The translations under genes were made by a program, and so were the position numbers. A DNA stretch of 64,000 nucleotides from a virus. The notes beneath the pieces were generated by a model that was not told the origin of the DNA, made no database searches, and saw only the letters and a list, made by a program, of their open reading frames with translations. The DNA is taken from positions 33,812 through 97,811 of the IMG/VR virus record IMGVR_UViG_3300037541_000522. The stretch is one strand, 5' to 3'. How positions within the stretch are numbered: position 1 is the stretch's first letter; each line of letters starts with the position of its first letter. Positions 19,503-47,398 of the stretch are shown here, piece after piece.

Positions 19503-19508
19503 ATTAAC

Positions 19509-20791: not shown

Positions 20792-20792
20792 A

Positions 20793-23208: not shown

Positions 23209-23283
23209 TGGTGGACCGCCGGAGGATCGAACTCCGACCTATGCCGTGCAAAGGCACCGTGCTCCCATTATCACTAGCAGCCC
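23209..23283 (-). tRNA. tRNA-Ala (TGC)
   Basis: G3:U70, TT-TGC-AC, CCA. Confidence 0.92.
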
Positions 23284-23601: not shown

Positions 23602-23611
23602 TATTATCTCC

Positions 23612-23653
23612 AAAAAACCATAGTTCAAATCACGAGTATGAGTTGAACTATGG
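23612..23653 (-). terminator. intrinsic terminator
   Basis: CCATAGTTCAA/TTGAACTATGG 11-bp stem + T6. Confidence 0.7.
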
Positions 23654-24013
23654 CCCCACTCCCTAAAGTGGCTTCATAGTGTCTTGTTACTATTGGGCGA
23701 CGGCCCGCAGGTCTAGAATGTCCAGTTACGTAGTCCACCATCACTAGTAACTTTTATCGCCCTGTTGCGCGGTATAGTCTAGGGATACGACTATGTAAGC
23801 GTGGCGGGAACTATTATATGCAGGTGCTCATTCCTGCTTGCTCTAGACTTCACTGTTCACGTTGTACAGTCGAATATCTTTACGGGGTACGACCCCAGCC
23901 TAGTCACCAGCCTAGAGTTTATAGGTTCAGCGTGAGCAGCGCAATTACGGATGTTGACTAGAAATAAGTTTTCCCAGTTCAGGCTTTAGAGTGCCTTATC
24001 GGGCTAGTCAACA
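23654..24013 (-). ncRNA. candidate large structured ncRNA
   Basis: No ORF of 60 aa or more; many helices and crossing pairings (see findings). Confidence 0.55.
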
Positions 24014-24114
24014 ACCATATTGAAACACACTGTGGTCTATACATACTTTCCTTGAGAGGTATGTGGTGTACCAGCCCTGATCTTTTTAGGGATTTTAATG
24101 TGCTTCAATATGGT
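24014..24114 (-). ncRNA. stem-enclosed RNA element after tRNA-Tyr
   Basis: 16-bp closing stem ACCATATTGAAGCACA/TGTGTTTCAATATGGT with internal hairpins. Confidence 0.5.
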
Positions 24115-24197
24115 GGATGCGGATGGATTCGAACCACCAGCGTTTCTAGTGTCACGAGTTTACAGCCCGCTGCCGTCAACCATTTGGCTACGCATCC
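24111..24197 (-). tRNA. tRNA-Tyr (GTA)
   Basis: CT-GTA-AA, variable arm, CCA. Confidence 0.92.
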
Positions 24198-24383
24198 ATA
24201 GTAAAGTATTTTGCTTACTGCCTGCTCGCGCATGAGTTAATCTTCCTGCCATATGATCCCGCTAAGGATCGGCTACGATTAACTTCAGCCCGCTTTAGGG
24301 ATATACCGGCCGGGTACCCTTATTTCTCTGGGCTGCAATGTCCTGTTTATTTCACCTAGGACGAACAAAATACTTAACTATGG
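24196..24383 (-). ncRNA. stem-enclosed multibranch RNA between tRNA-Leu and tRNA-Tyr
   Basis: 18-nt closing stem with 1 mismatch; four internal helices. Confidence 0.6.
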
Positions 24384-24463
24384 TGCCCTGGGACGGACTC
24401 GAACCGTCACGCTCGCGCACTGGCTTCTAAGACCAGCGTGTCTACCAATTCCACCACCTGGGC
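24381..24463 (-). tRNA. tRNA-Leu (TAG)
   Basis: CT-TAG-AA, variable arm, A73-CCA. Confidence 0.93.
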
Positions 24464-24556
24464 ATGGTAACGATCTAAGGTTTTAATCGTTGTGGCTCAT
24501 GCACCCCAAGCTGACGCTTGTTGAGCTTTTGCGGTTTGTGCCGCCCCATATATAAT

Positions 24557-24585
24557 ATTATACAGTATTAGTTAGCGTGAATCAA
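24557..24585 (-). promoter_or_regulatory. sigma70 promoter of the tRNA/ncRNA transcript
   Basis: TTGATT-N17-TATAAT. Confidence 0.7.
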
Positions 24586-24678
24586 GACAAGAAATTAAAC
24601 GGTAATAGTTGTATTGCTATTTCTTTCTTAATTCACACTATACACATATTATATCACGTTTACTGGTCTAGTGCAAGT

Positions 24679-25680
24679 CTAAATTTTCATTTGCTTGACA
24701 AAAGCAGCCTGAGCAAGGTTTTTCTCTTTGGACTCTAGCATAATGTCGCTATACTCTAGAAAACTACCGGCCCACTCGTTACAAGCTAGGTTCCAGTAGT
24801 AGTCACTATGTGCACGCAATTTAGCTCGCGTGAATCCTTGTGTTAACAATTCCTGCAGGTTGGGTCGGGCATTGCGATCATGTTCGACTACAACATCTTC
24901 ACGACTCAAGCTGTAGTGGATTACTGGCCTAACACCTCGCCAAGATTCCCATAACCGCTGTACACGAGGATCGGTTGGCTCAATGTATTCCCCACTCATA
25001 ATCCAGTGATGGTGAATGTCTAGGACTAGTGCACAGTGATCTACTAGCTCTAGACTAGCATTAATACCCCAGCTAAACTCAGCGTTCTCAATGGTAAGCA
25101 CATTGCGAGCTTCACGACTAAGACGCTTAAGTGCTTGTTTGATACCTTCTGGACCTTGTTTGCCACCAATATGTACGTTGCACTTAAAGTCTTGAAATTC
25201 ACGACCATAACCCATGTAGCGAATAAGGTCTACATGATACTCAAACTCTTGAATAGAGTTTTCAACAACATTTGGGTTTTCACTAGCTAGTACACAAAAC
25301 TGACCGGGATGAAAACTAAGTCGAATATCGTGTTGTCTAGCTAGGTTGCCAATCATATCAAATCTAGCCTCTAGCTCGCGAACTACGTCTGGCTCCCAGT
25401 ACCACCACGACCAGTCGTCGTGGGTATATGCTGGAAGCAAGTCGCTGCTTAGGCGGAACATACGCTCTTGTGCTGGCTTTTTAGCTACCCACTCTAGTTG
25501 CCTGATTATGGCGTTAGTATTCTTGTCCAGAATACCCCATAGCTTGGCTACAGCTACATCTCGGGTCTGATTATTTAGCCAAGTAATTGTGGTAGTGCCG
25601 GTGTTTAGGCCTGGAGCTGCTTTGTCATGGCTTTCTTGAATCTTGCAAGCAAAACCAACTCTGGGGTGTTGTTTGAACAT
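24679..25680 (-). CDS. uvsE: UV-damage endonuclease (UvsE/UvdE)
   Basis: RVGFAC, FRLSSDLLP, RLSFHPGQF, IEN, LDIHHH, HYS, RAHSDY, MLESKEK. Confidence 0.93.
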   Translation of the reverse strand: MFKQHPRVGFACKIQESHDKAAPGLNTGTTTITWLNNQTRDVAVAKLWGILDKNTNAIIRQLEWVAKKPAQERMFRLSSDLLPAYTHDDWSWWYWEPDVVRELEARFDMIGNLARQHDIRLSFHPGQFCVLASENPNVVENSIQEFEYHVDLIRYMGYGREFQDFKCNVHIGGKQGPEGIKQALKRLSREARNVLTIENAEFSWGINASLELVDHCALVLDIHHHWIMSGEYIEPTDPRVQRLWESWRGVRPVIHYSLSREDVVVEHDRNARPNLQELLTQGFTRAKLRAHSDYYWNLACNEWAGSFLEYSDIMLESKEKNLAQAAFVKQMKI

Positions 25681-25868
25681 TATCGTGTGTTTTTATAGTT
25701 ACGGACTGCTTCGGCGTCCAAGCTAGCATAGACTCTGAATTTGTCTTTGCCGACTTGGTCGTAGAGGTCGCTAGCCAGTTTGTACTGCTTTTCGGTGGTT
25801 TCAAGTCCCAGTGGCTCATATCTGCTCGCAAAACATTCCAACAAAAATTCACGGGTATAGCCTGCCAT
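25680..25868 (-). CDS. hypothetical protein
   Basis: Start MAGYTREF with GGAG RBS, after a promoter. Confidence 0.6.
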   Translation of the reverse strand: MAGYTREFLLECFASRYEPLGLETTEKQYKLASDLYDQVGKDKFRVYASLDAEAVRNYKNTR

Positions 25869-26023
25869 GTTTTCTTCTCCAAATGAAAAGATATTATAGC
25901 ACACCGTATCCACTAAGTCAAGATTAAAAATAACCCAACTACACACCCCACAACAATAATTAGTCGCTCTACTACGGTAAAACTTCCACAATGTATAAAG
26001 TTGTGTAATCGGATATTCATAGC

Positions 26024-26881
26024 CTACTCCAAGTCAATCCAGACTTTACTGCTAGCCTGTTCAAAACGCTCAGCCTGTCGCTCGTAACCAGCATATCCAC
26101 GAGGATTACTTACCACACGGCAACTACCGATCTGGTAGTCATTCATCGAATGCACATGACCATGTGCCCATAGCTTAACCTGCGGATTGTCTAGGATGAT
26201 GTTAGTAAGATCACTGTAGTATGCATGGTTGATATAACCATGTACGTGCTCACGGTACTCACTAGCAATTGACTCGTAGCTAGGAGCATGGTGAGTCATC
26301 ACAATAGTTTTGTGGTTGGGGTAGGCTAGTAGAAATTCTTCTAGTCGAGCACGGCTATACCGGTGCTCTTGCTCACTATCACTAGGGGTGAACTTGTTAG
26401 TCCAGTAGCCACCACCAGCTCCCTCTACAAACCTAGCAGGCTCGTGTTTGATTACTTGGTAATCACTCATGAGTCCACCAATAGCATGGGCAACTGTGGG
26501 ATTGCCACGATCATTATCCGTCCACATGGTAGCGCCCCAGATCAGGTAATCTTCAATCTTAACATAACTGTTTTGTAGAATAGTTACGTTAGGGGGTAGA
26601 AGGGGTTCAATACGCTTACGCGCAGTTGAGAAATCATGCTGGTAGTACTCGTGATTGCCAAACACGTATAGGACCTGTGCATACTTAGGCAGTTGGGTAT
26701 CACAAAACTTGTGGTACGCATCTAGAGTACTCATACCACGACCCACATTGTGTGCTAGTCGGATATGTCCTGCCTCTAAGAGGTCACCGCATAGGAGCAG
26801 GAGATCACCACCCGGCAGGACTAGTGTGTCGTGTCCGGTATCAAAGTTAATGTGTAGGTCGCTAGCGATATGCACTCGCAT
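26024..26881 (-). CDS. metallophosphoesterase
   Basis: SDLH, GD, GNHE, THHAP, HGHVH, NPRGY. Confidence 0.9.
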   Translation of the reverse strand: MRVHIASDLHINFDTGHDTLVLPGGDLLLLCGDLLEAGHIRLAHNVGRGMSTLDAYHKFCDTQLPKYAQVLYVFGNHEYYQHDFSTARKRIEPLLPPNVTILQNSYVKIEDYLIWGATMWTDNDRGNPTVAHAIGGLMSDYQVIKHEPARFVEGAGGGYWTNKFTPSDSEQEHRYSRARLEEFLLAYPNHKTIVMTHHAPSYESIASEYREHVHGYINHAYYSDLTNIILDNPQVKLWAHGHVHSMNDYQIGSCRVVSNPRGYAGYERQAERFEQASSKVWIDLE

Positions 26882-26952
26882 GATGTTCTCTGTGTGAATT
26901 ATTTATAAAATATTATATAATTTTTGAGATTTAGGGTCAAGATAGAAATCTT

Positions 26953-27027
26953 TGGCCCGGCCGGAGGGAATCGAACCCCCATTCGCACTTTAGAAGAATG
27001 CTGTCCTATCCGTTGAACGACGGCCAG
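26953..27027 (-). tRNA. tRNA-Arg (TCT)
   Basis: CT-TCT-AA, CCA. Confidence 0.9.
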
Positions 27028-32651: not shown

Positions 32652-33934
32652 AACCATAATTAACCCTTGTTCGCCCAACAACCACACTGGCCAAAAGCTT
32701 TTTCACTACAACGGCTTAGGCTGGTCTTGGTGGTGGTGTCAAAGGTGTGGTAGGCGATTTGATATTATAGACCCCTATGGCGAACAACTTCCAGACGACG
32801 AGGCAAATGATGCACCAGACAAACACCACAAATCCTATCGACTTTCCACACCATCCATTTGAAGATCTGTTATATAGTAGTGGCCTCATCGCCCAAGGTG
32901 GCTGGGATGAGCTGGACCCCTACCAGCAGGAGTGTGTTAAACACCTAGTACAACTCACAGCTCGTGACTGTGCTACCCAACTGGCCATGCTACCTATGCA
33001 ACACCTAGAAGAACCACAAGCTACTGTAGAACTAAATGCTATCAGCGATTGTATCCGTACTATCCTAGAGAGGTATCACTATGTGGGATGATAACTATAA
33101 AAAACCTGATTTCGATAATAACCTATGGCGAACCCAAATCACCGAAACTATTTACACCATTCAACTACACGAGCTGGAGCAAGTTCTCCAACTACTAGAG
33201 TCCGGCCAGATTGGTAAAGCCTATGACCAACTGTACCAGATTGTATATCCCCCTAACTTTAATGTGAGCGCACCATGACTCCTAAAATTGTCCCCGTACT
33301 AGACCAGTGCATTGAAACCGGCATTCAGCTGGGCTGGCAACGTGCACATAAGCATACAAGCAACCCCAGCCAAGACGAGATCCACACCCAGATCTACCAA
33401 GCCGTCTGGGCAGAATTGGATGCATGGTTTAACTTCGAGGACCAACCCAATGAATAACCACCCACAACTTATCGAAGTCCTTAACCACAATACGTGGTGG
33501 GTCAAGAACCTGGACCACGAACCTGTCAACACCGAACAGGTTAGGCTTTATTTTAACCAGCTATTCCCCGGCAAAGAAGTCTACGTATTTACCAGCACTC
33601 CACTATACACAGATTGCTATGTCAGGGTGGAACACGACTGATAACTACCACCTCAACTAAAAATACGCTTGCAAAACACAAAAAAGTATGATATAATATT
33701 GTTATATCTAAAGAGATTAAACAATTGGTGATTAAACCCTAGTTTAAAACAACTGCACCAAGCTGTGCAGGACCAGGCGACGTTTCGCGAGGGCCCCTGA
33801 GTACCAGCAAGCCTAGTGCAGTTGTTGTAAGAACTAGAGGTGTTAATCACTACCAACTTTATAAGTTGGAGAATTGTTTTCTTTTATACAAATTATAATA
33901 AATTTTTATACCCCAATTTTTACGCTAAAACTCG

Positions 33935-34717
33935 ATGCAAAAACTAAATAAACTGGAAGCAATTCCACTCCATGAAATTGCCAACCAGGTCGACCCTAAA
34001 CTGCTGGAGGTTTGGGTGGCCGAACAACAACTCCAGACCAAAGAGGAGTGGTTGTGGCCTCAGATTCTAGCACACTACAATCGCTGGAATCTTATCCTAG
34101 ACCCTCAAGGTAGGGTAGACATTCCTAAAACACTCCGTATCAACATTTGCAGCGATTGGGAGCTGGGCTTGTGGAGGCTAGTTAATCGAGTAAATCGCAG
34201 CCACCTGATCAAACGTCAAAGCCATCCCAGCTCTGTCAACTGGAGTAGTCTAGCTCCTACTATCCTACTAGCACAACGTCGAGATCGGGGAGTTCCATAC
34301 CAGAGCTGGCCGCTGGAAGGCTTGGATCGTGTGATTAGTAAAGAACTTTACGAATGTTTGCTGTGGGCTAGCCATAACCCACACTTCCGCGATTTAGGGT
34401 CACAAGAGCTCATCGAAATTCGCCAGCAGGGGTTGCTGTACAAAACTGGACAAAAACAAGGTCAGTATAAAAGTGCGCTTACAACTTGGCAGCTTACTGG
34501 ACTACCCACTCCATGGCGTGAGATTCCTCGTCTGGCGATTACAATGTTGACACAAATCTGGGTTTGCCATCCACAGCTACGAACACAATACTTAATCCTA
34601 GACCCCTGGCAGTGGGATCGTATGCCACCGCCGCTCCTACCCGACGAGATTTTTTCGGTTGTGGCGACTGAGGGTCCAAAACACGTTAAAGTCGCAGATA
34701 TGCCATGGGACGACTAA
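33935..34717 (+). CDS. conserved T5-like hypothetical early protein
   Basis: LAITMLTQIWVCHPQLRT..ILDP..WD.MPPPL...DMPW, recalled from T5-like phages. Confidence 0.7.
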   Translation: MQKLNKLEAIPLHEIANQVDPKLLEVWVAEQQLQTKEEWLWPQILAHYNRWNLILDPQGRVDIPKTLRINICSDWELGLWRLVNRVNRSHLIKRQSHPSSVNWSSLAPTILLAQRRDRGVPYQSWPLEGLDRVISKELYECLLWASHNPHFRDLGSQELIEIRQQGLLYKTGQKQGQYKSALTTWQLTGLPTPWREIPRLAITMLTQIWVCHPQLRTQYLILDPWQWDRMPPPLLPDEIFSVVATEGPKHVKVADMPWDD

Positions 34718-34721
34718 CAAC

Positions 34722-35033
34722 ATGAAATATACTAAAGAAATCACTGACCGTCTAGTGCAAAGATACCGAGAAGGTGTCCCAGTAGAGGAGCTTGCCCAAG
34801 AGCTCCAGGTGCCAACTCGTAGCATAATTGCCAAGCTCAGCTCCCTCGAGGTGTACCAGAAAAAACAGTACCTAAACAAACGCGGTGAGGTCCCGGTTAA
34901 GAAGTCAGAATACATCGAACGAATCGCCCTACTGCTCAACATGAACCTTGAACTGCTCGAAAGTCTGGAAAAGGTCAATAAAGGTGTGCTTGAGGTCATA
35001 GAACGGGAATTAAGTAGGAATAACCGACCCTAA
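34722..35033 (+). CDS. T5 A2-like HTH DNA-binding protein (paralog 1)
   Basis: YT.E.T..LV..Y..G..VEELA, RSIIAKLS, VYQKK, ESLEKVNK. Confidence 0.75.
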   Translation: MKYTKEITDRLVQRYREGVPVEELAQELQVPTRSIIAKLSSLEVYQKKQYLNKRGEVPVKKSEYIERIALLLNMNLELLESLEKVNKGVLEVIERELSRNNRP

Positions 35034-35045
35034 ACCGTATAAAGT

Positions 35046-35084
35046 GAAAAAACCCCCAAAGCTGTGGAAGCCTTGGGGGTTTTT
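35046..35084 (+). terminator. bidirectional intrinsic terminator
   Basis: AAAAACCCCCAA...TTGGGGGTTTTT. Confidence 0.75.
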
Positions 35085-35324
35085 GTTTTGTGAGCACAAC
35101 TTGTACCGACTTGCCGCGGCTTAGGGTCAGAACCCCAACAAATCTGCTCTTGACACATATAGCTTTAGCACTGTATAATATTGGCGCCCTACCGCAAATA
35201 AAAAAGCCCACCAGTTTGCACTGGTGGGCTCGGTTCCTGACCCTAAACCGTAGTCTGCTGGGCATGGGGCACCAGTTTTCGGGTTTGGGTTTCGCTCTTG
35301 GTGAGCTCATCAGAGGAATAGGGG

Positions 35325-35611
35325 GAAAAGCAGCAACGATGGTTGAGATTGCCGCGGTTTAGGGTCTGGTTGATTTCCGTGAGTGCGTTCCCCAGAATTT
35401 ACTGCTTCCAGGTACTGAGACATTAGGGACCGATCAGAGCCAGACATCATAAAACTACAGACCAATATTACCATCTGCTAGCAGTAACTAACTGCTGCCT
35501 TTCTGAAGGGATAGTTTGGGAATCAAACTTGAGTCTCGTACTTAGGTTATCGACACTTGTAGTTGGCTAAGTGGACTCTGTTTGTGCGCGTTATCGCCCT
35601 TCCCAAACTAT
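35325..35611 (-). ncRNA. candidate two-domain ncRNA
   Basis: Directly after promoter TTGCAG-N17-TATAAT (35646-35618); two 11-bp closing stems. Confidence 0.5.
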
Positions 35612-35673
35612 AATAATATTATACACTGTTTGAGTGGGGGCTGCAAGAGTAAATTTTTGCAGCCCCCGGTTGA

Positions 35674-35982
35674 TCAGGCTTTGAGCACTTCGACCAGGCG
35701 GGTCAAAACATCCTGATTTGCTTTTTCCAGCGATTCAAACTGTTCACTATTCCGATCACACACCTTAGCAATGCGCTCGACCAGCTCAGCTTTGGTAACC
35801 CGGGCCGCCTGTGTAGTCCGGGTCTTCGCTACGTACACACCCTCGCGCGAAAGTTTAGCAACCACACTACGCACACTTTTACCAACCTGCTCAGCCAGTT
35901 GCTCAACACTTACACCTTGCTGATACTTCTGGACCAGTTCCTGAACTTGTTCAGGGGTATAGTTCATTACTTTGTCAGTCAT
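35674..35982 (-). CDS. T5 A2-like protein (paralog 2)
   Basis: NYTPEQ, GKSVRSVVAKLSREGVY, SLEKAN. Confidence 0.8.
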   Translation of the reverse strand: MTDKVMNYTPEQVQELVQKYQQGVSVEQLAEQVGKSVRSVVAKLSREGVYVAKTRTTQAARVTKAELVERIAKVCDRNSEQFESLEKANQDVLTRLVEVLKA

Positions 35983-36197
35983 TTGGGTTCTCCAATCAAT
36001 CAATATAAATATTATACAGGGATTAGGCTTGGGAATCAAGTCAAGATTTTTTAGGCTTCAACCAGTCAGGTAAATCGCCTACGGTATCCGGTGGCACAAA
36101 TTTGTTCATGTTGTTCCTTTAATCGCTGACTCAATATAAATATTATACATGGCTTAGCGGTCGCGGGCAAGACTAGATTTTTCGATTTGCCACTTTA

Positions 36198-36379
36198 GCA
36201 CTGGCGCAGGAAGACCAAGTTTTTGCACTTGCCAAGGTTTTGCACTGGCGCACGCGCAAGATTTTGCACTTGCCAAGGTTTTGCACTGGCGCAACCTGCC
36301 CTGGAGGTTAGTAAGTGCTCACTAACTTGGTCCGGTTAGTAAGTGCTCACTAACTTGGTCCGGTTAGTAAGTGCTCACT
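36198..36379. repeat. direct-repeat block resembling a T5 injection-stop signal
   Basis: 32-bp repeat x2 (36221, 36262); 28-bp repeat x2 plus a partial third (36306, 36334, 36362), each containing GTTAGT-N8-ACTAAC. Confidence 0.75.
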
Positions 36380-36388
36380 TCGCTAGGC

Positions 36389-36649
36389 TGGCACGAATCT
36401 TGCTAGTGGCACGAATTTTGCTTGGTGCGAATGAGAATCATTCTCATCTAGGCCTGGCACGAATTTTGCTTTGTGGTAAAAAAGCCACGGTTACAAATTG
36501 TTACAATTCTGCGCTTGACACGGGCCGATTTTATATGATAAAATCGGCGCCAGCGCCTGGCACAGTTTTTGCCTTAGCAAGAACTGTGCCAGGCTGGGCC
36601 GGGCCGAAAAAAAGCCCCGACCGGAGTCGGGGCTGGCACAATCCTTGCC
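36389..36649. promoter_or_regulatory. cluster of six sigma54 -24/-12 consensus sites plus a Fur box
   Basis: TGGCAC-N5-TTGC at 36389, 36407, 36455, 36558, 36634 (+) and 36591-36576 (-); ATGAGAATCATTCTCAT at 36431. Confidence 0.7.
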
Positions 36650-36652
36650 TAG

Positions 36653-36979
36653 TTAGATAGGCTTGGAATTGGCAAGCGCATCAAAAATCGCCTTCAGCGC
36701 GCGCTTGTTCGCTTTGGTAAGCGAGTCGGTATCAGCTTCGCTCAGGTTCAGAATTCGACCGATAGCATCCGCAGTCATATCCTTTTTCTGAACGGGTTCG
36801 CCGGTTTTCGTGGTATAAACCTTTTTCTGGTAAACACCCTCGCGCGACAATTTTGCCACAATCGAACGAACCGATTTGCCGAGATTTTCGGCAATGCTTT
36901 CCACGGTAACACCCGCGAGATAATCCGCGACAACCTGCGCGGTTTGCTCGGGAGTGTAGTTCACGGCTTTTTCTGCCAT
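36653..36979 (-). CDS. T5 A2-like protein (paralog 3)
   Basis: MAEKAVNYTPEQT, KSVRSIVAKLSREGVYQKK, DSLTKANK. Confidence 0.8.
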   Translation of the reverse strand: MAEKAVNYTPEQTAQVVADYLAGVTVESIAENLGKSVRSIVAKLSREGVYQKKVYTTKTGEPVQKKDMTADAIGRILNLSEADTDSLTKANKRALKAIFDALANSKPI

Positions 36980-37128
36980 TTTGCTACCCTTCACAGTTTT
37001 GGCAAGCGCCCCATGCACCCGCCACAGAAAAGATTCTACACGAAAATCTAGCCCTGCGCCCTGGGCAAGCGATTGTATTTTTTAATCGACTAGGCGACCC
37101 CGATAGAAAAATATTTTGTAGAAAACCC

Positions 37129-37252
37129 TTGACACGGGCAAATTTTATATGATAAAATTTGGCGCCAGCAAGGTGTGATGTTATAACATCACACGGGTGT
37201 GATGTTATAACATCACATAGGCCTGGCAAAGTAAAACCCCTTTCGGGGTTTT
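37129..37252 (+). promoter_or_regulatory. repeat module: promoter-palindrome + tandem Zur-box palindromes + terminator
   Basis: TTGACA-N18-TAAAAT, GGCGCC, 2x TGTGATGTTATAACATCACA, AAAACCCC-TTTC-GGGGTTTT. Confidence 0.7.
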
Positions 37253-37254
37253 AT

Positions 37255-37599
37255 TTATTTATTGAATCCTGCAATATTAACCTGATAATGTCGCCGGAAA
37301 TATTTTCGCCACCGATCAAAATAACCTGATGGAGAATGATTTACTGGAAGATTATTTTCAGATTGCCAAGCGTGAATATATTCATGCACAATGGTTGCAA
37401 ATAATTCCATGGGATTCCAGATTTCAGCGCGTGAAACTTGGATTAGGTGATAATCGAATTCATCTTCCCATAATCCTACACAATAAACACCGCCGAGATT
37501 TATAGTCTTGCAAACCTGTAAAACTACGGGTTTGCGGATTTGAATTTCGGTTTCCGCAATTCGCTGGAATAGTTCAATGTCTGATTTGTGAAACTTCAT
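37255..37599 (-). CDS. HExxH zinc-metalloprotease-like protein
   Basis: ATIVHEYIHAWQ...H. Confidence 0.7.
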   Translation of the reverse strand: MKFHKSDIELFQRIAETEIQIRKPVVLQVCKTINLGGVYCVGLWEDEFDYHLIQVSRAEIWNPMELFATIVHEYIHAWQSENNLPVNHSPSGYFDRWRKYFRRHYQVNIAGFNK

Positions 37600-37850
37600 T
37601 TTCTGGTATCCTCAATTTTGAAAAAAATCATTACCGCAAGGCAAAGCGAATTAAATAGATAATTGCCCAGCAAAATCCAGTCTTGTTTAGGCCAAATATA
37701 AATAATGGTGAATATCTCGCCAATTGCCCAAAGGATTAAAAACATCCACGACAAACCCTCAGCGGATCGTTTACGGTAGCATTCGACAACCTGTGGAATT
37801 GCACAGGTTGCAAATGCAACCGATCCGATAATACCGATTGCATCCGACAT
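37596..37850 (-). CDS. PQ-loop/SemiSWEET-like 3-TM membrane protein
   Basis: IPQVVECYRKRSAEGLS plus three TM helices. Confidence 0.8.
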   Translation of the reverse strand: MSDAIGIIGSVAFATCAIPQVVECYRKRSAEGLSWMFLILWAIGEIFTIIYIWPKQDWILLGNYLFNSLCLAVMIFFKIEDTRK

Positions 37851-37852
37851 AA

Positions 37853-38554
37853 TTAAATTGCCTTAAAGTGATTTTTGACCTGAAAATCGTACCATGTATG
37901 CGCTTTAAGATTATCGCGCCATTGTTTGCGCTTGATAATACTGGTCAGGATGGGCAATTCAAAATCGCGCGCATCCTCGATAGCGGTATGGGGTTCAATC
38001 TTAAATTCACCCTGAATAAATCCGCATACTGCCTCAGCGGTAGTCTTAAAAGACATATTACCCTTATCAGTCGGCGGATTAAATAAGTGATTCTCTAAAC
38101 AGAATTGACGATATTTGCGAGTTCCGCAAATATTACCGATTGCCGCTTGCCACAGGCAAAACCGATCCGTGAATAGGTCAAGATCAATCGCAGTATTGCG
38201 ACATTTACCCTCATCAAAGTTTAGATTATATGCCGTGAGAATAGGATTATATTTGCCTACCGCAAGCGCAAGCCAGCGATTAATTGCCGCAACTGATGCA
38301 AGCATACGCGCGCCAGAATCTAGCATGGCGACATATTGTGCTTCACGTTTACGCAAACCCGCAAAACCCCAAATATCTGATTTGTTTTTGTCGTGGAATA
38401 GAGTCTTATCCCCATATTCACCGCGAACCAGAACAGCACATTGTGTGAAAATCTTACCCTCACGATCAACAATTACCGCGCCAAAATCGGCCACGGTATC
38501 ATTAATCGTTGTCTCAGTGTCAACGATACAAAAAAACTGCTTGCGAGCCATCAT
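37853..38554 (-). CDS. DEDDh 3'-5' exonuclease
   Basis: IVDTETT, AYNLNFD, HTAIEDA. Confidence 0.85.
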   Translation of the reverse strand: MMARKQFFCIVDTETTINDTVADFGAVIVDREGKIFTQCAVLVRGEYGDKTLFHDKNKSDIWGFAGLRKREAQYVAMLDSGARMLASVAAINRWLALAVGKYNPILTAYNLNFDEGKCRNTAIDLDLFTDRFCLWQAAIGNICGTRKYRQFCLENHLFNPPTDKGNMSFKTTAEAVCGFIQGEFKIEPHTAIEDARDFELPILTSIIKRKQWRDNLKAHTWYDFQVKNHFKAI

Positions 38555-38715
38555 CTACCCTTTACCGGAAAGCGCCGGAAATCGCGCGCGGCAATTGCCA
38601 CACCCAGATTCTAGCACAGAATCCAGCCCCATGCAAAAAATTCTAGTGGGGCAAACCCTTGTGTACAAAATACGACACGGGCCAGGTTTTGTTACAATTA
38701 TTTACAATTTGGTCC

Positions 38716-38853
38716 TTGACACCGGCCCAATTTTAATAGTAAAATTGGCGCCAGCATGGTGTGATGTTATAACATAACATTGTTTCATGTGAAACAATGT
38801 TATGTTATAACATCACATGGCCTGGGCAAAATAATAGGGGCGTATGCCCCTAT
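38716..38853 (+). promoter_or_regulatory. repeat module with a 58-bp palindrome: Zur boxes flanking a parS-like site
   Basis: 28-bp perfect arms 38760-38817; centre TGTTTCATGTGAAACA (38781-38796). Confidence 0.7.
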
Positions 38854-38965
38854 CGTCCTTCAACCCATTGCCACATTACGGGTTCCTCCTCAAGGTATTC
38901 GCGCGCCCTGTATCGAGAGGTTGTTACCAGATGACCGACCAGTAGGAAGCAAAAGGCAGTTTTCA

Positions 38966-39439
38966 TTAGTGTCCCTGCTTGCTTGGAATGTAAACTCCAC
39001 GGATACCGAAACGGTCGCAGACTGCTTTAAGGTAGTCCACATTATCCTCATAAAAAACAACATCGTCAGTCTGGAAGTTGACAAGGTTGAAAAACTTTGC
39101 TAGTCCACCGATTTTGAGGGTTCGACCTGATTGCGTATCGCCCTGTTTACGCGAAACGATATAATCGGGTTCGCCTAGAGTGTCGCGGATAAATTCTCGA
39201 TCCGGTTCGCCTAGTACGCGCGCAGTCGCAATTATGGTATACGTTTCAGGATCGTCAAGGTCTTGCCAGTATTCTTCGACCAGCGGTAAGAGTGAATCGT
39301 CAAGCGCGCGGTATTCATTCTCGCGCCAGTAGTCTAGGTCGATACGCTCGCCACGCTCATCGATGACGGTCCGGTAACGATGCAGCGAGCATACAATGGT
39401 TCCGTCCATGTCGTAAATTCTAACGCGCTTGATTGCCAT
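38966..39439 (-). CDS. HAD-family phosphatase (possible functional analogue of T5 dmp)
   Basis: YDMDGT motif I, ATAR motif II, K, FYEDN motif IV. Confidence 0.8.
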   Translation of the reverse strand: MAIKRVRIYDMDGTIVCSLHRYRTVIDERGERIDLDYWRENEYRALDDSLLPLVEEYWQDLDDPETYTIIATARVLGEPDREFIRDTLGEPDYIVSRKQGDTQSGRTLKIGGLAKFFNLVNFQTDDVVFYEDNVDYLKAVCDRFGIRGVYIPSKQGH

Positions 39440-39780
39440 TATTTTAATTCCATTGTGTGAAAGGGTTTCGGTTCATACCCTAGAGTATACATGATTTCCT
39501 GCCATGGTTTGCCGTGATGCCGCTTATATTTTCGCCATCCGTTCAGGCAGTAGTCGATATAATGTGCAGTCTCATGGGTGAGAATTTGCCCCATCATTTC
39601 ACGCCGGTATTCGCGCAAGTATGGGCCGCTGAGGGTAATCTCGCCAGTCTCCACAATGCACAAGCCAGCGGTACGGGTTAGCCGTTCCGAGATTTTGAAG
39701 GTTGGCGGGTTGTGCAATTCCAGTTCCGGCCAAATCCGGCAAGCATCTTGCCAAGGTTTTAAGAGCGGGTTTGAGTTCAT
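39439..39780 (-). CDS. SprT-like metalloprotease
   Basis: RLTRTAG, LTHETAH, HGKPWQEIM. Confidence 0.85.
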   Translation of the reverse strand: MNSNPLLKPWQDACRIWPELELHNPPTFKISERLTRTAGLCIVETGEITLSGPYLREYRREMMGQILTHETAHYIDYCLNGWRKYKRHHGKPWQEIMYTLGYEPKPFHTMELK

Positions 39781-39883
39781 GAGTAAGATAGTACAGGAAA
39801 ATCGCGCCTAGTGCAAGCCAGGTGCCATTGTATTTTTCTATCGACACGCTCACGCCCATAGAAAAATTTTTTTGCAAAAACCC

Positions 39884-39955
39884 TTGACACCCGCCAATTT
39901 TATATGATAAAATTGGCGCCCAGGTGTTGCGTTTCCGCAACACCTGGGTTTACCC
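39884..39955 (+). promoter_or_regulatory. repeat module with TGT-N12-ACA palindrome
   Basis: TTGACA-N18-TAAAAT, GGCGCC, CCCAGGTGTTGCG-TTTC-CGCAACACCTGGG. Confidence 0.65.
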
Positions 39956-40284
39956 TAGTTTACGTCACCCTTGACAAATCGCAAAAAGTTCAGAGCAACT
40001 TCCAGCGTAGTCTCTCCGGGCATACGGGGAAACGAAACCGTTTCACCCTGAAAAGCCCGTTCCATTGCCAGAATCTCACCCTTGATCGGGTCATAGGCAT
40101 CGAAGTCTGCACAATAGGCAACTGCGATTTTAACCCAGTTCACGGAATTCCGGCTCCATGATTCAGGCACACTGGGACGAACCGCGACGGTAATTCCGTC
40201 CTCAACATCATAAACCAGCGAGCCACCTTCTCCCTCAAGGTCGGACAGAAGATTACGCCGTAAAACTTGATCCCATTTTTTCAT
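39955..40284 (-). CDS. hypothetical pre-early protein
   Basis: Start MKKWDQ. Confidence 0.6.
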   Translation of the reverse strand: MKKWDQVLRRNLLSDLEGEGGSLVYDVEDGITVAVRPSVPESWSRNSVNWVKIAVAYCADFDAYDPIKGEILAMERAFQGETVSFPRMPGETTLEVALNFLRFVKGDVN

Positions 40285-40308
40285 GATAAACCCTTTCAAG
40301 GTTAAGTT

Positions 40309-40539
40309 TCAGAGCCAGACCAAAACAAATTCTTCGTCGTAAGATACAGGCAAATCAGGAAAGTTATGCTCATCGAGCCAATCGTGTATATAGTACACAA
40401 ATTCCTGAGCATCGTGCGTGCTTGAGAACGATACCGCAACAGCCTTGCGATCCTTGTGAAGTGCAAGGTTATCGATGCCAGCCCAAATCGCGCCACATTG
40501 CATGGCATGGTCAACTATCATTTGAGGATCGTTCATCAT
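40309..40539 (-). CDS. hypothetical pre-early protein
   Basis: Start MMNDPQ, after promoter TTGCAC-N17-TATAAT. Confidence 0.55.
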   Translation of the reverse strand: MMNDPQMIVDHAMQCGAIWAGIDNLALHKDRKAVAVSFSSTHDAQEFVYYIHDWLDEHNFPDLPVSYDEEFVLVWL

Positions 40540-40642
40540 TTTGTTGCCTTGTGTTTTGTCCATGTAGAGAATTATACAGGTTTTTGGGGATTGTGCAACC
40601 CAGGGCATATAAGGAAAACCCTAATGACCAAAAAACCACGCT

Positions 40643-40759
40643 GTTACAAATTGTTACAATTAAATGCTTGACACGGGCCAAAATTATATGATATAATTTT
40701 GGCGCCAGCGTGTTGTAAAAATACAACACGCTCCCAGGCCTCGGGGCTTGCGCCCCGAG
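40643..40759 (+). promoter_or_regulatory. repeat module with GTTACA direct repeat and TGT-N12-ACA palindrome
   Basis: GTTACA-N4-GTTACA, TTGACA-N18-TATAAT, GGCGCC, AGCGTGTTGTA-AAAA-TACAACACGCT. Confidence 0.65.
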
Positions 40760-40769
40760 CCGTAGTGTG

Positions 40770-41090
40770 CTACGCCTTGCTGCGGATAAACTCCGCAATC
40801 GCAGCAAGCGCGCGCTTGTTTGCTTTGGCAAGTGAATCGGTATCCCCTTCTGAAAGGTTCAGTGCCTTGCCGATCATATCAGCGTGCTCATCCTTTTTGA
40901 CGGGAGCCTCGCCCGTTTTGGTTGTGTATTCCTTTTTCTGGTATACACCCTCGCGGGACAGTTTAGCAACAATCGACCGAACCGATTTGCCCATTGCCTT
41001 GGCAATATCCTCAACCTGTACCCCAGCCTTGTAATCGGCCACAAGTTTAAGGGTTTGTTCCGAAGTGTAGTTCGCAGTCTTTTCAGCCAT
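40770..41090 (-). CDS. T5 A2-like protein (paralog 4)
   Basis: MAEKTANYTSEQT, KSVRSIVAKLSREGVYQKK, DSLAKANKRAL. Confidence 0.8.
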   Translation of the reverse strand: MAEKTANYTSEQTLKLVADYKAGVQVEDIAKAMGKSVRSIVAKLSREGVYQKKEYTTKTGEAPVKKDEHADMIGKALNLSEGDTDSLAKANKRALAAIAEFIRSKA

Positions 41091-41093
41091 GAT

Positions 41094-41279
41094 TTATTCC
41101 CCTTTGTCAATAAATGAAATTCCAAGCAAGCCAGCAGCAAAGCCAGCAAGTGCCAGCATTACGCTGGTAAGCCAGTATACCACAGAACCAGTCGCGGGTA
41201 TCTGGTCAAGCCCGCCGGCTACGCCGGCAAGCAACACAATCCCAAAAAACACAAGCCCAAAACCTAACGCGCTTTTCAT
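41094..41279 (-). CDS. small 2-TM membrane protein
   Basis: Two hydrophobic helices. Confidence 0.6.
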   Translation of the reverse strand: MKSALGFGLVFFGIVLLAGVAGGLDQIPATGSVVYWLTSVMLALAGFAAGLLGISFIDKGE

Positions 41280-41286
41280 ATTAGCC

Positions 41287-41439
41287 TCAATAAAGATTGT
41301 AATTCATAACGTGGAAGATACGGCAACCCTTGTGCATTGCCTTGACAAGCCCGCAAGCATCTTGCTCGCTTTGAGCCTGTAGTGTAACAGAACCTTGCTT
41401 GCCTTGCAAGTAGTAACTGATTGTATAGGTGTTCCGCAT
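41287..41439 (-). CDS. small hypothetical protein (first pre-early gene)
   Basis: Start MRNTYTISYY, after a TTGCAC...TATAAT promoter. Confidence 0.5.
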   Translation of the reverse strand: MRNTYTISYYLQGKQGSVTLQAQSEQDACGLVKAMHKGCRIFHVMNYNLY

Positions 41440-41686
41440 TGTGCTTCCAGGGTTGTGTGCTTCGATGTGTTTAATTATACAGGGTTGAAAATTTTGTGCA
41501 AGCATTGAATTGTAACAATTTGTAACAGCGCCAGGCCTTGTGATGTTATAACGTAACAGGGGCGGTTTTTTGACTTGACAAACCAAAAAATCTGAGCGCC
41601 CACCCACGCGTGTAACACCAAGGAAAATTTACCCATTGACCCTAAACCGCTAAACGTGTTACACTTTAAAAAACTACAGGATCACC

Positions 41687-42154
41687 ATGAACCAACTACC
41701 CACCGACACCATCAACATAAGCCCCGAATTATTGGAGGTGGCTAATCTCTACCTAGAACACCAAAACACCCAGGAGGTAGCCACTGTCCTCCAGCTAGAA
41801 CCCCACGACGTTGCCCAGATCCTAAAGCGTCCAGATGTGAAATCCTACATTAACCAGGTATTCTTCGACTTAGGCTTCAACAACCGGTTTCGTATGCGCC
41901 GTGCCATGGACGCACTTATTAGTCAAAAGTTTCAGGAGCTGGAGGAGTCGCAAACGGGCAGCACCAAAGACATATCGGAACTACTTGCACTCTCACACAA
42001 AATGAGCATGGAATTGCTAGACCGTGAGATTCAGCTGGAGAAATTACGGCAAGGTGGGCCTAAAAATCAGGTTAATGTGCAGATCAACGAGGGCGGTGAC
42101 GGTACACGATATGGCCAGCTAATCCAGAAATTGCTGGGAGACAAACTTGCTTAA
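41687..42154 (+). CDS. terS: terminase small subunit
   Basis: ISPELLEVANLYL HTH; position before terL. Confidence 0.85.
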   Translation: MNQLPTDTINISPELLEVANLYLEHQNTQEVATVLQLEPHDVAQILKRPDVKSYINQVFFDLGFNNRFRMRRAMDALISQKFQELEESQTGSTKDISELLALSHKMSMELLDREIQLEKLRQGGPKNQVNVQINEGGDGTRYGQLIQKLLGDKLA

Positions 42155-43460
42155 GGTGTCGAGACCCGATGTAGAGTGGGACGGCATTCAAGAATTCGAC
42201 CCACATACCCGTTTTATTAAACTACCAATCGAAAACTATCTTAAGCTCATCGGAGCTTGGGATCAGCTAAACCGCGCGCAGCTGGCACTAATCAATGCGG
42301 TCAACAATCCACAATACCGTTTTGTTGTAGCCGCACTAGCACGCCGTCTAGGCAAAACCTATATTGCAAATATCATTGCGCAACTAGTAAGCCTAGTGCC
42401 AAACTGCAATGTCCTAGTGATCAGTCCCAACTATAATCTGTCCAGCATTAGTTTTGAACTGCAACGCAGGTTTATCAAACACTTTGAGTTGGAGGTGGAG
42501 CGGGATAACCTAAAGGACCGGGTAATTGAGCTGAGCAACGGGTCTACAGTCAGGATGGGTTCGCTGTCCACAGTAGATAGCACAGTTGGTAGATCGTACC
42601 AGCTTATACTCTTTGACGAGGCTGCCTTAGGCGACGGCGGTGAGGAGGCATTTAATATCCAGCTGCGTCCGACCCTAGACCGGGTAGATGCTAAAGCTAT
42701 ATTTATCTCCACACCTCGTGGCAAGCAAAACTGGTTCTCCCGATTCTGGGATCGTGGGTTCTCGGCAGAATTTCCGGAGTGGTGTTCACTCTGGGCAGAT
42801 TATGAAGAAAATCCCAGGATGAGCCCTAAAGATATTGAAGAAGCCCGCAGGTCTATGAGCAAGCAGGAGTTTGAGCAGGAATACCTTGCGTCATTCACTA
42901 CATTTGAGGGTCAGATTTATGAGTTACGGGATGATAACATCGTGCCTTGGGACCCCAAACTGCAGCTGGATCAGAGTACTCAGTTTATTGCGGGCTGCGA
43001 CCCGGGATACCGAGACCCCACAGCCTTCCTAGTAGTAGCCTACCTGCCGGATCCACGTGATGCAGGCGAGGATAGGTTCTGGGTTATACGTGAGTACGAG
43101 GAGGCCGAGCAGACTACCCAGTATCATGCCCAACAGATTAAAAACATGGCAGACGAGTTCCAGATTGAACTAATCTTTATAGATAGTGCGGCAGCACAGT
43201 TTGCTCAAGACCTTGCCTACCAGTATGATATTCCGACTGTGCGTGCTCGTAAAGATGTACTTCCCGGCATCGCGTACGTGCAAACCCTAGTCGCACAGGG
43301 TAAGCTATGGGTAGATCCGGGCTGTACCAAGACCGTAGAGGCACTCAACCAGTACAAGTGGGATGATCGCGAGGGGCTTACACGTGAGAAGCCTAAGCAT
43401 GATCGGTACTCTCACCTTATGGATGCGCTCCGCTACTGCTTATACTCGTTTACTAGATAA
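42147..43460 (+). CDS. terL: terminase large subunit
   Basis: ARRLGKT, LILFDEAA, FISTPRG, GCDPG, HLMDALRY. Confidence 0.95.
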   Translation: MLKVSRPDVEWDGIQEFDPHTRFIKLPIENYLKLIGAWDQLNRAQLALINAVNNPQYRFVVAALARRLGKTYIANIIAQLVSLVPNCNVLVISPNYNLSSISFELQRRFIKHFELEVERDNLKDRVIELSNGSTVRMGSLSTVDSTVGRSYQLILFDEAALGDGGEEAFNIQLRPTLDRVDAKAIFISTPRGKQNWFSRFWDRGFSAEFPEWCSLWADYEENPRMSPKDIEEARRSMSKQEFEQEYLASFTTFEGQIYELRDDNIVPWDPKLQLDQSTQFIAGCDPGYRDPTAFLVVAYLPDPRDAGEDRFWVIREYEEAEQTTQYHAQQIKNMADEFQIELIFIDSAAAQFAQDLAYQYDIPTVRARKDVLPGIAYVQTLVAQGKLWVDPGCTKTVEALNQYKWDDREGLTREKPKHDRYSHLMDALRYCLYSFTR

Positions 43461-45463: not shown

Positions 45464-47398
45464 ATGGTAGACAAAAATAAGATCCTGTACTTTAACAGTG
45501 TCTTTACTAAAGCTGAGCCGCTACCAGCAGAACCAGACGTAATTGAGATTAGTGGATATGCATCAACTGTGGATGTTGACAGACACGGCGATGTAATCCC
45601 CACCTCAGTTTGGGAAAGAGGCTTAGAGAACTACATAAAAAATCCTGTTATCCTAGCATTTCATGACCATACTCAACCAGTTGGTCGTATGACTGAGCAC
45701 AAAGTAGATGCAAAAGGATTATGGATTAAAGCTAGGATCTCAAAAGCTGCTGAAAAAGTATACCAGCTTATCAAAGACGAAGTTTTAACAGCATTTTCAG
45801 TTGGATTTAGAATTAAAGATGCGGAATATAATACAGCCGCAGAAGTTTTCCTAGTCAAAGACTTAGAATTACATGAAATTTCGGTAGTTTCGGTACCAGC
45901 AAATCAAAACACACTTTTTAATCTTTCAAAATCGTTTAACTCCGTTACGGAGTATCGTGAATTTATCGCGCAATTTGCACCCCAAAGCGAGTCAGCTAAA
46001 GGGCTAGACACCACTAGGCAAGCAAAGAGCACAACCAAAGAGGAATTGGACATGACTCCAGAAGAATTAAAGCAATTACTAGCCCAAACAGCTCAAGACG
46101 CTGCACAGCAAGCTGCTAAGGCTATCAAAGAAGAACAAGCTCGTGTAGAAGCTGAGAAAGCTGCTCGTGAACAAGCAGAAGCTGAGCTACAAGCACGTAT
46201 CAAAGCAGCTGTTGCTGCTGTAACTCCTACTGAAACTGGTGCAGAAAAGCTACTAGCCGAAGTAGAGAAGCGCTTCCAAGAACAAGCAGAAAGCACCAAG
46301 AGTGTTATCACTGGCCTAGAAGCTGCCCTAAAAGAAAAAGCACAAGAGCTAGAAGCTATTCAGAAAAGCAAGATGCAATTCGTTGATGGCAAACAAGGCG
46401 AAATGAGCTATGCCGACAAAGAGAAAGCAGTTCTCTTAGCCAAGATGAGCGGCAAAGCAATCGACCAGACACGTCTAGGTCGTGAACTAGTTCAAAAGTA
46501 CGGTGGTACAGGTCAAAGCCCTCACCAGCCAAGCGCAACTTGGGAACTAGAAGTTAGCCTAGCAATGGAAAACGAAGTTCGCCGTCGCCTAGTTGTTGCT
46601 CCTACCCTACGTAGTATTGCAATGCAAACTAACGTAATGACTATTCCTGTTAACCCCGAAGCAGGTGTTGCAAGTTGGGTTCAGAATAGCCAGTTTGGTG
46701 CCTCAGCTTCAGCTGGTAATACTGCTGTTCACGCTCTTAAAGAGATCACTCTTAACGCATACAAAGTTGCTACCAACGAGTATGTAGCCTTCGAAGAAGA
46801 AGAAGATGCTCTAATAGCAATTATGCCTGTTATCCGTGACGCAATGGTTCGCCGTGTTGCTCGTGCTGTTGATCGCGCAATGCTACGTGGTGCCGGTGCT
46901 GGTGCAGATCCTGTTAAAGGTCTTGCCACATACGACGAAACAAGCGCAGTTAATCTAGACATTAGCGATAACGCTAAGCTAACAGTTGCACTTCTACGTG
47001 CAATGCGTCGTGACCTAGGTGCTTGGGGCTTAGATCCTGCTGAGCTAGTTTATATTGTAAGCACAGACGGTTACTACGATCTCTTAGACGACGATAACTT
47101 CCTAACTGTTGATAAAGTTGGCACACAAGCTACTTTACTAACAGGTCAAATCGGTAGCGTTGCTAATACTCCAGTTCTAGTAAGTGCTGAGTTTGCTGAT
47201 AAAGCCGCTGCTGCTGTTGGAGCAATCTGCTTTGCACCAGGTAACTTCCTAGTTGGTAATCAGCGTGGTCTACGTGTTGACACCGATGACCTAGTTGAAA
47301 CACAACGTCGCGTAATGGTTGCCAGCCTACGCACTGGCATGACCCAAGTTACTACTAACCTTGGTCAGGGCGTAAGCGCTCTACGTTACGTAGCCTAA
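45464..47398 (+). CDS. prohead protease fused in frame to HK97-fold major capsid protein
   Basis: GYAST..DRHGD, FHDH, FSVGF, EISVVSVPAN, then coiled-coil scaffold and capsid body; internal SD-ATG at 46052. Confidence 0.92.
   Translation: MVDKNKILYFNSVFTKAEPLPAEPDVIEISGYASTVDVDRHGDVIPTSVWERGLENYIKNPVILAFHDHTQPVGRMTEHKVDAKGLWIKARISKAAEKVYQLIKDEVLTAFSVGFRIKDAEYNTAAEVFLVKDLELHEISVVSVPANQNTLFNLSKSFNSVTEYREFIAQFAPQSESAKGLDTTRQAKSTTKEELDMTPEELKQLLAQTAQDAAQQAAKAIKEEQARVEAEKAAREQAEAELQARIKAAVAAVTPTETGAEKLLAEVEKRFQEQAESTKSVITGLEAALKEKAQELEAIQKSKMQFVDGKQGEMSYADKEKAVLLAKMSGKAIDQTRLGRELVQKYGGTGQSPHQPSATWELEVSLAMENEVRRRLVVAPTLRSIAMQTNVMTIPVNPEAGVASWVQNSQFGASASAGNTAVHALKEITLNAYKVATNEYVAFEEEEDALIAIMPVIRDAMVRRVARAVDRAMLRGAGAGADPVKGLATYDETSAVNLDISDNAKLTVALLRAMRRDLGAWGLDPAELVYIVSTDGYYDLLDDDNFLTVDKVGTQATLLTGQIGSVANTPVLVSAEFADKAAAAVGAICFAPGNFLVGNQRGLRVDTDDLVETQRRVMVASLRTGMTQVTTNLGQGVSALRYVA

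Follow-up and report, generated by a model that had tools for sequence, protein, structure and literature searches.

Promoter-early stem-loop elements (PeSLs) are cassettes described from T4-type phages (Arbiol et al. 2010, PMC2839356; Comeau et al. 2014, PMC4122927), and phages phi29 and Nf carry host Spo0A boxes at early promoters together with host-type parS sites (PMC2731898). In phage T5, the injection-stop signal (iss) contains DnaA boxes, at which Davison proposed that the host DnaA protein binds (bioRxiv 10.1101/866236). How T5-type DNA transfer stops and restarts has been an open problem since the 1960s, and the cis-acting signals involved are still hypotheses. Here we analysed a 64,000-nucleotide stretch of viral DNA (the window, bases 33812-97811 of a 97.8-kb IMG/VR virus record originating from lake-water metagenomes), in which a preliminary description made from the sequence alone had noticed a repeated promoter-palindrome module. 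Each module consists of a sigma-70-type promoter scaffold, in most cases followed by a palindromic element, hereafter the cargo. We propose, with a probability of about 0.42, that the modules are regulated antisense promoter/operator cassettes that would gate pre-early genes, partly via host proteins, and would also act as recombination joints.

The scaffold, TTGACA-N18-TAWAAT-N-GGCGCC, is present in six copies, all on the plus strand. Searching for TTGACA-N(20-34)-GGCGCC returned six matches, at 35150, 36515, 37129, 38716, 39884 and 40668, against 0.03 expected from shuffled sequences. Module coordinates refer to the T of TTGACA, whilst the CTTGACAC of the preliminary description begins one base earlier; the copies were all found where that description had placed them, including a palindrome-less one at 35150, as was a decayed remnant keeping GCGCCAGG. 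The six modules are the top sigma-70-like sites in 34900-41750, with 11-12 of 12 consensus positions and a spacer of 18 nt, and four of them carry an extended -10 TG. Module 0 (35150-35188, +; TTGACA-N18-TATAAT-ATT-GGCGCC, 12/12) has no palindrome at its -10 element, and has orthologs in related loci L012 and L014 and in G001, a relative of ~98 kb. In the other five, the -10 lies within a perfect palindrome of 9-12 bp with a loop of 3-4 nt, and a second palindrome follows directly after: module 1 (36515-36551, +; GCCGATTTTAT-ATG-ATAAAATCGGC, then GGCGCC), module 2 (37129-37166, +), module 3 (38716-38752, +), module 4 (39884-39920, +) and module 5 (40668-40706, +; 12/12 with TG). GGCGCC has no copy in the 97.8-kb genome outside the six modules and is likewise confined to modules in G001, while the reversed control word occurs 9 times in this genome and 5 times in G001. 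This suggests that GGCGCC is avoided elsewhere or reserved as a signal.

Across the whole record, the modules form a single array on one strand, co-directional with the downstream operon running from terS to the tail genes. The genes between them lie on the minus strand and the modules face their 3' ends, which bears out the earlier statement that the modules are antisense to the genes. These minus-strand genes carry weaker promoters of their own, of the type TTGNNN-N17-TATAAT (TTGATT/TTGCCC-N17-TATAAT at 36011-36170, -, and another at 38608-38637). A minus-strand intrinsic terminator (35204-35231, -) stands directly downstream of module 0. A clear plus-strand terminator was seen for module 2 alone, where a bidirectional terminator at 37229-37256 would end the RNA at ~90 nt; modules 1 and 3-5 have no plus-strand terminator between them and the gene that they face.

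The same architecture recurs in related viruses. An exact-pattern scan of IMG/VR with the strict scaffold gave 13 loci and a looser scan at least 120, and the set analysed below comprises 131 stretches (130 IMG/VR loci and the window) with 247 unique modules. Two or more modules are present in 66 of the 130 loci, and in complete relatives they again form one array on one strand. The flanks contain an A2-like gene at 83% of the 130 loci, terS at 65% and a Dmp-like gene at 62%, A2 and Dmp being pre-early genes of T5. Among 50,697 phage records, megablast found no match to the region, and blastn with one scaffold gave partial chance matches alone; the scaffold is absent from all cultured phage records. 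Family-wide, an A-tract occupies positions -41 to -46, that of a proximal UP element. In 164 of the 247 modules, the -10 and the first bases of GGCGCC form the right arm of a perfect palindrome of 7 bp or more, and 56 different right arms occur. The stem averages 10.2 bp, compared with 2.1 bp when arms are re-paired between modules; because the true arms pair so much further, this covariation indicates that the palindrome is selected as such. Two other candidates were rejected: a minus-strand promoter within the -10 palindrome, as no conserved -35 was seen on the minus strand by eye, and an N4-type hairpin promoter, as the genome has no open reading frame (ORF) for a giant virion RNA polymerase.

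The first palindrome downstream starts between -1 and +4 of the predicted start site, with a median of 10 Watson-Crick pairs as compared to 5 in controls. Considering homology-defined genes, downstream neighbours are convergent with the module in 122 of 122 cases and co-oriented in none, whilst upstream neighbours are divergent in 128 of 139; A2-like genes are the commonest convergent target (n = 50). Co-oriented ORFs did appear in crude gene calls, where they lack a ribosome-binding site or overlap the module. A 111-aa ORF lies antisense to the A2-like gene facing module 5 (40699-41034, +), starts in the module's GGCGCC and is open in L010 and L017, without a ribosome-binding site; the codon pattern of the sense gene probably accounts for it. 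A plus-strand intrinsic terminator follows within 150 nt in 52% of modules, compared with 12% of controls, and within 60 nt in 30%.

The cargo begins at the predicted start site and, judged from its sequence, behaves as protein-binding DNA. Cargo 1 (36556-36593) consists of two inverted sigma-54 sites (TGGCAC-N5-TTGC, the pair itself at 36558-36591), whose arms differ in the N5 spacer alone, TGGCAC and TTGC being kept. The genome contains seven exact sigma-54 sites, all in the module region (control, none). Across the loci we counted 45 distinct sites in 23 loci, compared with one in the control, and their free flanks fit Y-TGGCAC-G...TTGC-W. No co-oriented ORF lies downstream of these sites, and no search was aimed at a phage enhancer-binding activator. 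Cargo 2 (37174-37219) is made of two direct copies of a 22-bp palindrome, GTGTGATGTTATAACATCACAC, which we call type B. In cargo 3 (38760-38821), two type B halves enclose the parS-like sequence TGTTTCATGTGAAACA (38781-38796), a 15/16 match to parS and the sole parS-like site in the genome (control, none). Within 120 nt downstream, 32 of the 247 modules have a parS core, which places 69% of parS sites in 2.5% of the sequence (~28-fold enrichment), and the exact 16-bp parS TGTTNCACGTGAAACA follows 13 modules. Cargos 4 (39919-39948; CCCAGGTGTTGCG-TTTC-CGCAACACCTGGG) and 5 (40707-40732; AGCGTGTTGTA-AAAA-TACAACACGCT) belong to a class GTTG-N8-CAAC, in which the spacing is fixed in 29 of 30 cases and the centres are A/T-rich but not always complementary.

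Type B had been labelled Zur-like. The half-sites of the Zur consensus, ATGTTAT/ATAACAT, are separated as in GAAATGTTATAATATAACATTTC, with five more central base pairs than in type B, whose ATGTTA/TAACAT half-sites abut. On this spacing we rejected a Zur identity, although the cargos themselves (the sigma-54 pair, the two 22-bp palindromes, the nested parS palindrome and the palindromes at 39919-39948 and 40707-40732) are all present as originally listed.

A further class is a Fur box, a 19-bp palindrome in 9-1-9 arrangement, AATGAgAATcATTctCATT. The copy at 36429-36447 scores 18/19 and is the only site in the genome at three or fewer mismatches (control, none). As a cargo, CAAATGAGAATCATTCTCATTTG equals the Xanthomonas-type Fur consensus (PMC1790865), with 19/19 matches in L075, L077, L096 and L137. 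Among the proteins encoded by the genome, no ParB_N or FUR gene was found, and since the phage has no ParB_N gene, any ParB acting here would be that of the host. The comparison with the rest of the genome that the preliminary description had called for is thus in its favour, with the sole parS-like site, the sole Fur-like site and all seven sigma-54 sites in the region.

The same cargo bears on whether the modules are small-RNA genes, producing a short structured plus-strand RNA (5' hairpin, A/U-rich linker, terminator) that acts in trans on targets of the host or the phage, or in cis, antisense to the 3' ends of pre-early mRNAs. Terminators at the distances given above would allow this in about half of the modules, including an RNA of ~90 nt from module 2; the hairpin takes in the 5' end (GCCAG...CTGGC), and the convergent layout resembles that of oop and cII. 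Yet mismatches in the cargo palindromes show no bias towards plus-strand G.U wobble (33, against 57 A.C), and half-sites kept at a fixed distance around centres that do not pair argue for sites recognised in DNA. In addition, cargo sequences are unrelated between modules, so that no common RNA function is apparent, no Rfam family matches, and terminators often precede the end of the gene, leaving no overlap. We consider this explanation quite unlikely. An entry of DNA driven by polymerase, as in T7, is also unlikely, as most modules are directly followed by hairpins or terminators.

The location of the modules can be compared with that of the T5 pre-early genes. Gene order in the window is T5-like, the module region lies between plus-strand early genes (ending at ~35033) and terS (41687), and terL is 47-50% identical to terminases of the Demerecviridae (T5-like). 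Three putatively DNA-binding paralogs of 100-120 aa match phrog_1725, of which T5 A2 is also a member (4e-52): A2a (35674-35982, -), with a GcrA-type N-terminal helix-turn-helix (PF07750 at 29.4 bits, which passes the Pfam threshold; phrog_1725/323), A2b (36653-36979, -), convergent with module 1, and A2c (40770-41090, -), convergent with module 5. Direct BLASTP of A2b against T5 A2 was insignificant, so the link to A2 rests on the shared PHROG. A structure model of A2b (predicted local distance difference test score, pLDDT, 81) shows two three-helix bundles, for which Foldseek returned weak matches to bipartite helix-turn-helix proteins alone, and a PDB profile search returned GcrA at E = 0.37. 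A 157-aa Dmp-like HAD phosphatase (38966-39439, -) matches phrog_415, the PHROG of T5 Dmp (3.6e-57). No homolog of T5 A1 was found at E <= 1.

An ORF-free block of ~500 bp (36194-36650) on the early-gene side of the region, the position of iss in T5, contains direct repeats, six sigma-54 sites and one Fur-like site. Its repeat-rich part (36194-36475, +) comprises three copies of TTT(T/A)GCACTGGCGCA, three 28-bp units with the palindrome TTAGTAAGTGCTCACTAA, three tandem sigma-54 sites and the Fur-box-like site at 36429-36447, whilst at the other end (36613-36648) the minus-strand terminator of A2b (36613-36634) is followed by the sixth sigma-54 site (36634-36648, +). The block is kept in L010, L012, L014, L019, L020 and L021. 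Because of the A2 and Dmp PHROGs, this iss-like repeat block and the adjacency of terS, the module region is probably the first-step-transfer (pre-early) region, as had been supposed from the letters alone; the T5-like terL points the same way.

In T5 itself (L022, AY543070), GATTCTCATTATCATTCGCATTC at 9700-9722, in the annotated injection-stop region beside the major nick, consists of three Fur-type hexamers; it matches the E. coli Fur box at 14/19 on the other strand by our own count, and is not mentioned in bioRxiv 10.1101/866236. Depth and joint observations were based on Logan contigs of sequencing runs, of which two wastewater 'RNA-Seq' runs were flagged as probably DNA and contain relatives alone. 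In run X20, contig depth changes from 10.4 to 18.7 to 11.6, with steps at ~36300 and ~41940 (within 33500-43000 of the window), which would fit either a collapsed terminal repeat or the co-occurrence of two strains that have this stretch in common; the loose ends favour the latter. One break coincides with the repeat block and the other lies within terS, and loose ends stem from other strains, so this step was not counted for a terminal repeat. TTACAA direct repeats, one helical turn apart, stand just upstream of the -35 of modules 1, 3 and 5 (36488-36510, 38690-38712 and 40641-40662). They are inverted at the remnant (41508-41528, -), which spans 41505-41562 and combines these repeats, GCGCCAGG and a decayed type B palindrome with no promoter; similar words occur in ~9% of the modules of other phages. 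These repeats are a candidate site for a bipartite helix-turn-helix (A2-like) protein.

We read the modules as regulated antisense mini-units because the register between promoter and operator is fixed, the convergent orientation is strict and terminators are frequent. The scaffold would capture host sigma-70 RNA polymerase through its A-tract at the UP position, consensus -35, 18-nt spacer, often extended -10 and G+C-rich GGCGCC start. Each module is aimed at the 3' end of the upstream cassette and stands back to back, at ~65 bp, with the weaker sense promoter of the next. The start-site palindrome would serve as an operator, and the protein bound to it would decide whether the polymerase leaves. 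Some operators may be for proteins present when the DNA arrives (sigma-54 holoenzyme, ParB, Fur); as only host proteins exist at entry, host-type operators would be the natural control of such promoters. Others would probably be bound by the phage's own A2-like proteins. If open, the promoter would give either a terminated RNA of 40-150 nt or transcripts running antisense through the upstream pre-early gene, mostly A2-like. Depending on the DNA-binding proteins present, the cassettes might thus control whether or when pre-early genes are expressed, and perhaps, by way of A2, the transfer of the remaining genome. Being almost the same sequence from cassette to cassette and from phage to phage, the scaffold would also be suited to serve as a recombination joint, shuffling cassettes and their cargo.

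Several points weigh against such gating. Bidirectional terminators between cargo and gene (e.g. 37229-37256) would stop the antisense RNA before it reaches the gene, so that antisense silencing cannot be general. The covarying -10 palindrome is left unexplained, here as by every other model considered. The parS sequences lie 30-60 nt downstream, which is not a classic operator position. Calling the operators 'host-type' relies on general consensus sequences. Finally, a consensus promoter with a G+C-rich start may be an escape-limited parking site for polymerase, which would fit better with an array for docking proteins.

In such an array, host proteins (parked sigma-70 holoenzyme, closed complexes of the sigma-54 holoenzyme, ParB, Fur) would be loaded onto the first-entering DNA and any RNA would be a by-product; the complexes would hold, stop or position the DNA, in analogy to the T5 injection stop, shield it, or titrate regulators. 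A G+C-rich GGCGCC start followed by a hairpin would favour slow promoter escape through effects of the initial transcribed sequence, which we count for this explanation. All elements are at or near consensus, hence of maximum affinity (promoters of 11-12/12 with a UP-like tract, parS, Fur, sigma-54), there is no co-oriented gene for the promoters to transcribe, and the ORF-free block, which lies towards the inner side of the region like the iss of T5, is crowded with six sigma-54 sites, a Fur box and repeats. Davison's proposal of host DnaA on iss boxes (bioRxiv 10.1101/866236) is a precedent. On the other hand, the fixed register of promoter and palindrome and the frequency of terminators point to a role for transcription itself. 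Regulators that are abundant cannot be titrated by one or two copies of the genome, non-specific nucleoid proteins could act as a DNA ratchet with no need of dedicated sites, and by T5 synteny the promoters would point outward to the leading end, giving no pulling force. We regard docking as a doubtful second to gated expression.

Alignment with relatives revealed how the two parts of the module evolve. Between orthologous modules, the scaffold shows 92-100% identity, exceeding the conservation of the flanking genes, whilst cargo identity falls to 53% or the cargo is replaced outright at the same position; a constant scaffold with swappable cargo, as first proposed, was therefore borne out. 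In L020 and L021, the palindrome AAGTTAGTAAGTGCTTACTAACTT, which in the window sits in the repeat block, stands in place of type B. Despite this change of cargo type in both loci, the A2 paralogs remain 87-98% identical (L020 compared with the window), and a one-to-one pairing of A2 paralog and cargo type was rejected on these grounds. In contigs of relatives from wastewater, joints and points of divergence coincide exactly with the edges of modules (at 40668, and with 37169 joined to 38798).

These joints, and the scaffold being more conserved than its surroundings, could also mean that the modules are a PeSL-like insulator or recombination linker alone, stopping read-through from one cassette to the next and providing homology by which cassettes are shuffled, with palindromes that are terminators or A2-like operators and whose likeness to host sites has no functional meaning. 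In keeping with this, distant relatives (L011, L016) carry a plain hairpin and T-run as cargo, A2-like genes are present at 83% of the loci found by pattern, and the exact type B 20-mer is nearly absent from bacterial genomes (5 of 185,579 species genomes, none of them betaproteobacterial). However, a PeSL promoter drives the next gene, which is the case for 0 of 122 here. The 13 exact and 32 core parS modules, exact 19-bp Fur boxes and 45 sigma-54 sites against one in the control are far beyond chance, in a phage with no detected ParB or Fur of its own, and in L020 and L021 a different cargo type accompanies three A2 paralogs that are still 87-98% identical. A linker without further function is accordingly unlikely, and we rank gating above docking, docking above the PeSL-like linker and the linker above small-RNA genes. 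A bolder version of gated expression, which we think quite unlikely, is a host-state-dependent injection checkpoint, where a polymerase-capturing scaffold on the DNA that enters first would have a slot for consensus sites of available host proteins (ParB, Fur, sigma-54 holoenzyme and others), exchanged by recombination, and these proteins would determine if and when A2-type transfer proteins are produced and the remaining genome enters.

Elsewhere in the window, a minus-strand block contains 19-20 tRNAs, a permuted tmRNA of betaproteobacterial type, NAD-ligase, a D5-like regulator, DnaB, primase and polymerase, and a plus-strand block contains terS, terL, portal, a putative protease-capsid fusion and tail genes. 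The fusion is suggested by a 644-aa ORF (45464-47398, +) that matches both head maturation protease and major head protein families. The two-piece tmRNA (15476-15865, -; tag ANDETFALAA) lies inside the tRNA cluster (12975-27027), and its type points to a betaproteobacterial host. Searching 400 Gammaproteobacteria (in the GTDB sense) with this tmRNA matched a generic T-arm segment alone. An Rfam scan returned the tRNAs and the tmRNA alone above threshold, the cargo hairpins giving sub-threshold microRNA-like matches. On inspection by eye, a 233-aa protein encoded between modules 2 and 3 (37853-38554, -) has motifs resembling those of DEDD exonucleases (D-T-E-T towards the N-terminus and H-x-A-x-E-D towards the C-terminus); neither Pfam nor PDB yielded a sequence match, and the protein is kept in 66 of 130 module-bearing loci. 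A 12-mer, GACCCTAAACCG, occurs in 6 exact and 12 one-mismatch copies in the 97.8-kb genome (control word, 0). Copies in the window are at 35026, 35112 (-), 35239, 35348 (-) and 41638, so that same-strand copies flank the module region on both sides, and the last overlaps a promoter-like TTGACC-N18-TACACT just upstream of terS. This 12-mer may serve a promoter or a regulator specific to the phage, or may mark the boundary of a terminal repeat.

The modules form a clear, widespread and testable family of cis elements in uncultured relatives, in the region equivalent to that in which T5 transfer signals are sought, and as their exact sites belong to identifiable host proteins, experiments on binding and entry can be planned directly. 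With this family, the notion derived from PeSLs that regulatory cassettes drive modular shuffling reaches a further major lineage of phages. The preliminary description knew of no account of such an array. This held for the combination, as neither the literature searched nor any cultured phage record yielded a consensus antisense promoter with an interchangeable operator slot, but not for its parts: T5 iss DnaA boxes, phi29 Spo0A and parS sites and T4-type PeSLs are partial precedents, so that each ingredient has been seen before.

In common with the T5 first-step-transfer region, the lake phage has non-coding pre-early repeats and palindromes that are better conserved than ORFs, Dmp-like and A2-like genes alongside, and consensus sites for host DNA-binding proteins of the kind proposed to hold DNA. 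T5 differs in lacking an antisense array of consensus promoters, its strong pre-early promoters being sense, and in carrying DnaA boxes where the lake phage carries sigma-54, parS, Fur and further palindromes; the lake phage has no A1 homolog detected at the threshold given above. Phi29 is likewise a virulent phage, whose early promoters carry operators for global DNA-binding proteins of the host; together with host centromere sites, these couple infection to host state. In phi29, the host sites act in spore entrapment and in the repression of sense promoters and origins that belong to the phage itself, whereas the predicted sites described here follow antisense promoters and occupy a modular slot with exchangeable content, in a phage of Gram-negative type. 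The oop RNA of lambda and the sar RNA of P22 are short convergent antisense RNAs, each encoded at one locus and defined in its sequence and in its overlap with the target. They share with the modules a short unit that has its own promoter and converges on the 3' end of an early regulatory gene; here, by contrast, there are at least six units per genome, with unrelated RNA content and often terminated before the gene.

PeSLs are also short, near-identical units of a sigma-70-type early promoter and a stem-loop between small variable early genes, and coincide with breakpoints of insertion, deletion and replacement, just as joints and cargo replacement are seen among the relatives of the lake phage. 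In a PeSL, however, the ORF that follows lies in the same orientation as the promoter and is transcribed from it, and the stem-loop, which terminates the previous gene, comes before the promoter. In the modules of these T5-like siphoviruses, the promoter is antisense (0/122 co-oriented), its -10 is embedded in a covarying palindrome, a further palindrome follows at the start site, and the place of the stem-loop is taken by interchangeable, putatively protein-binding sites.

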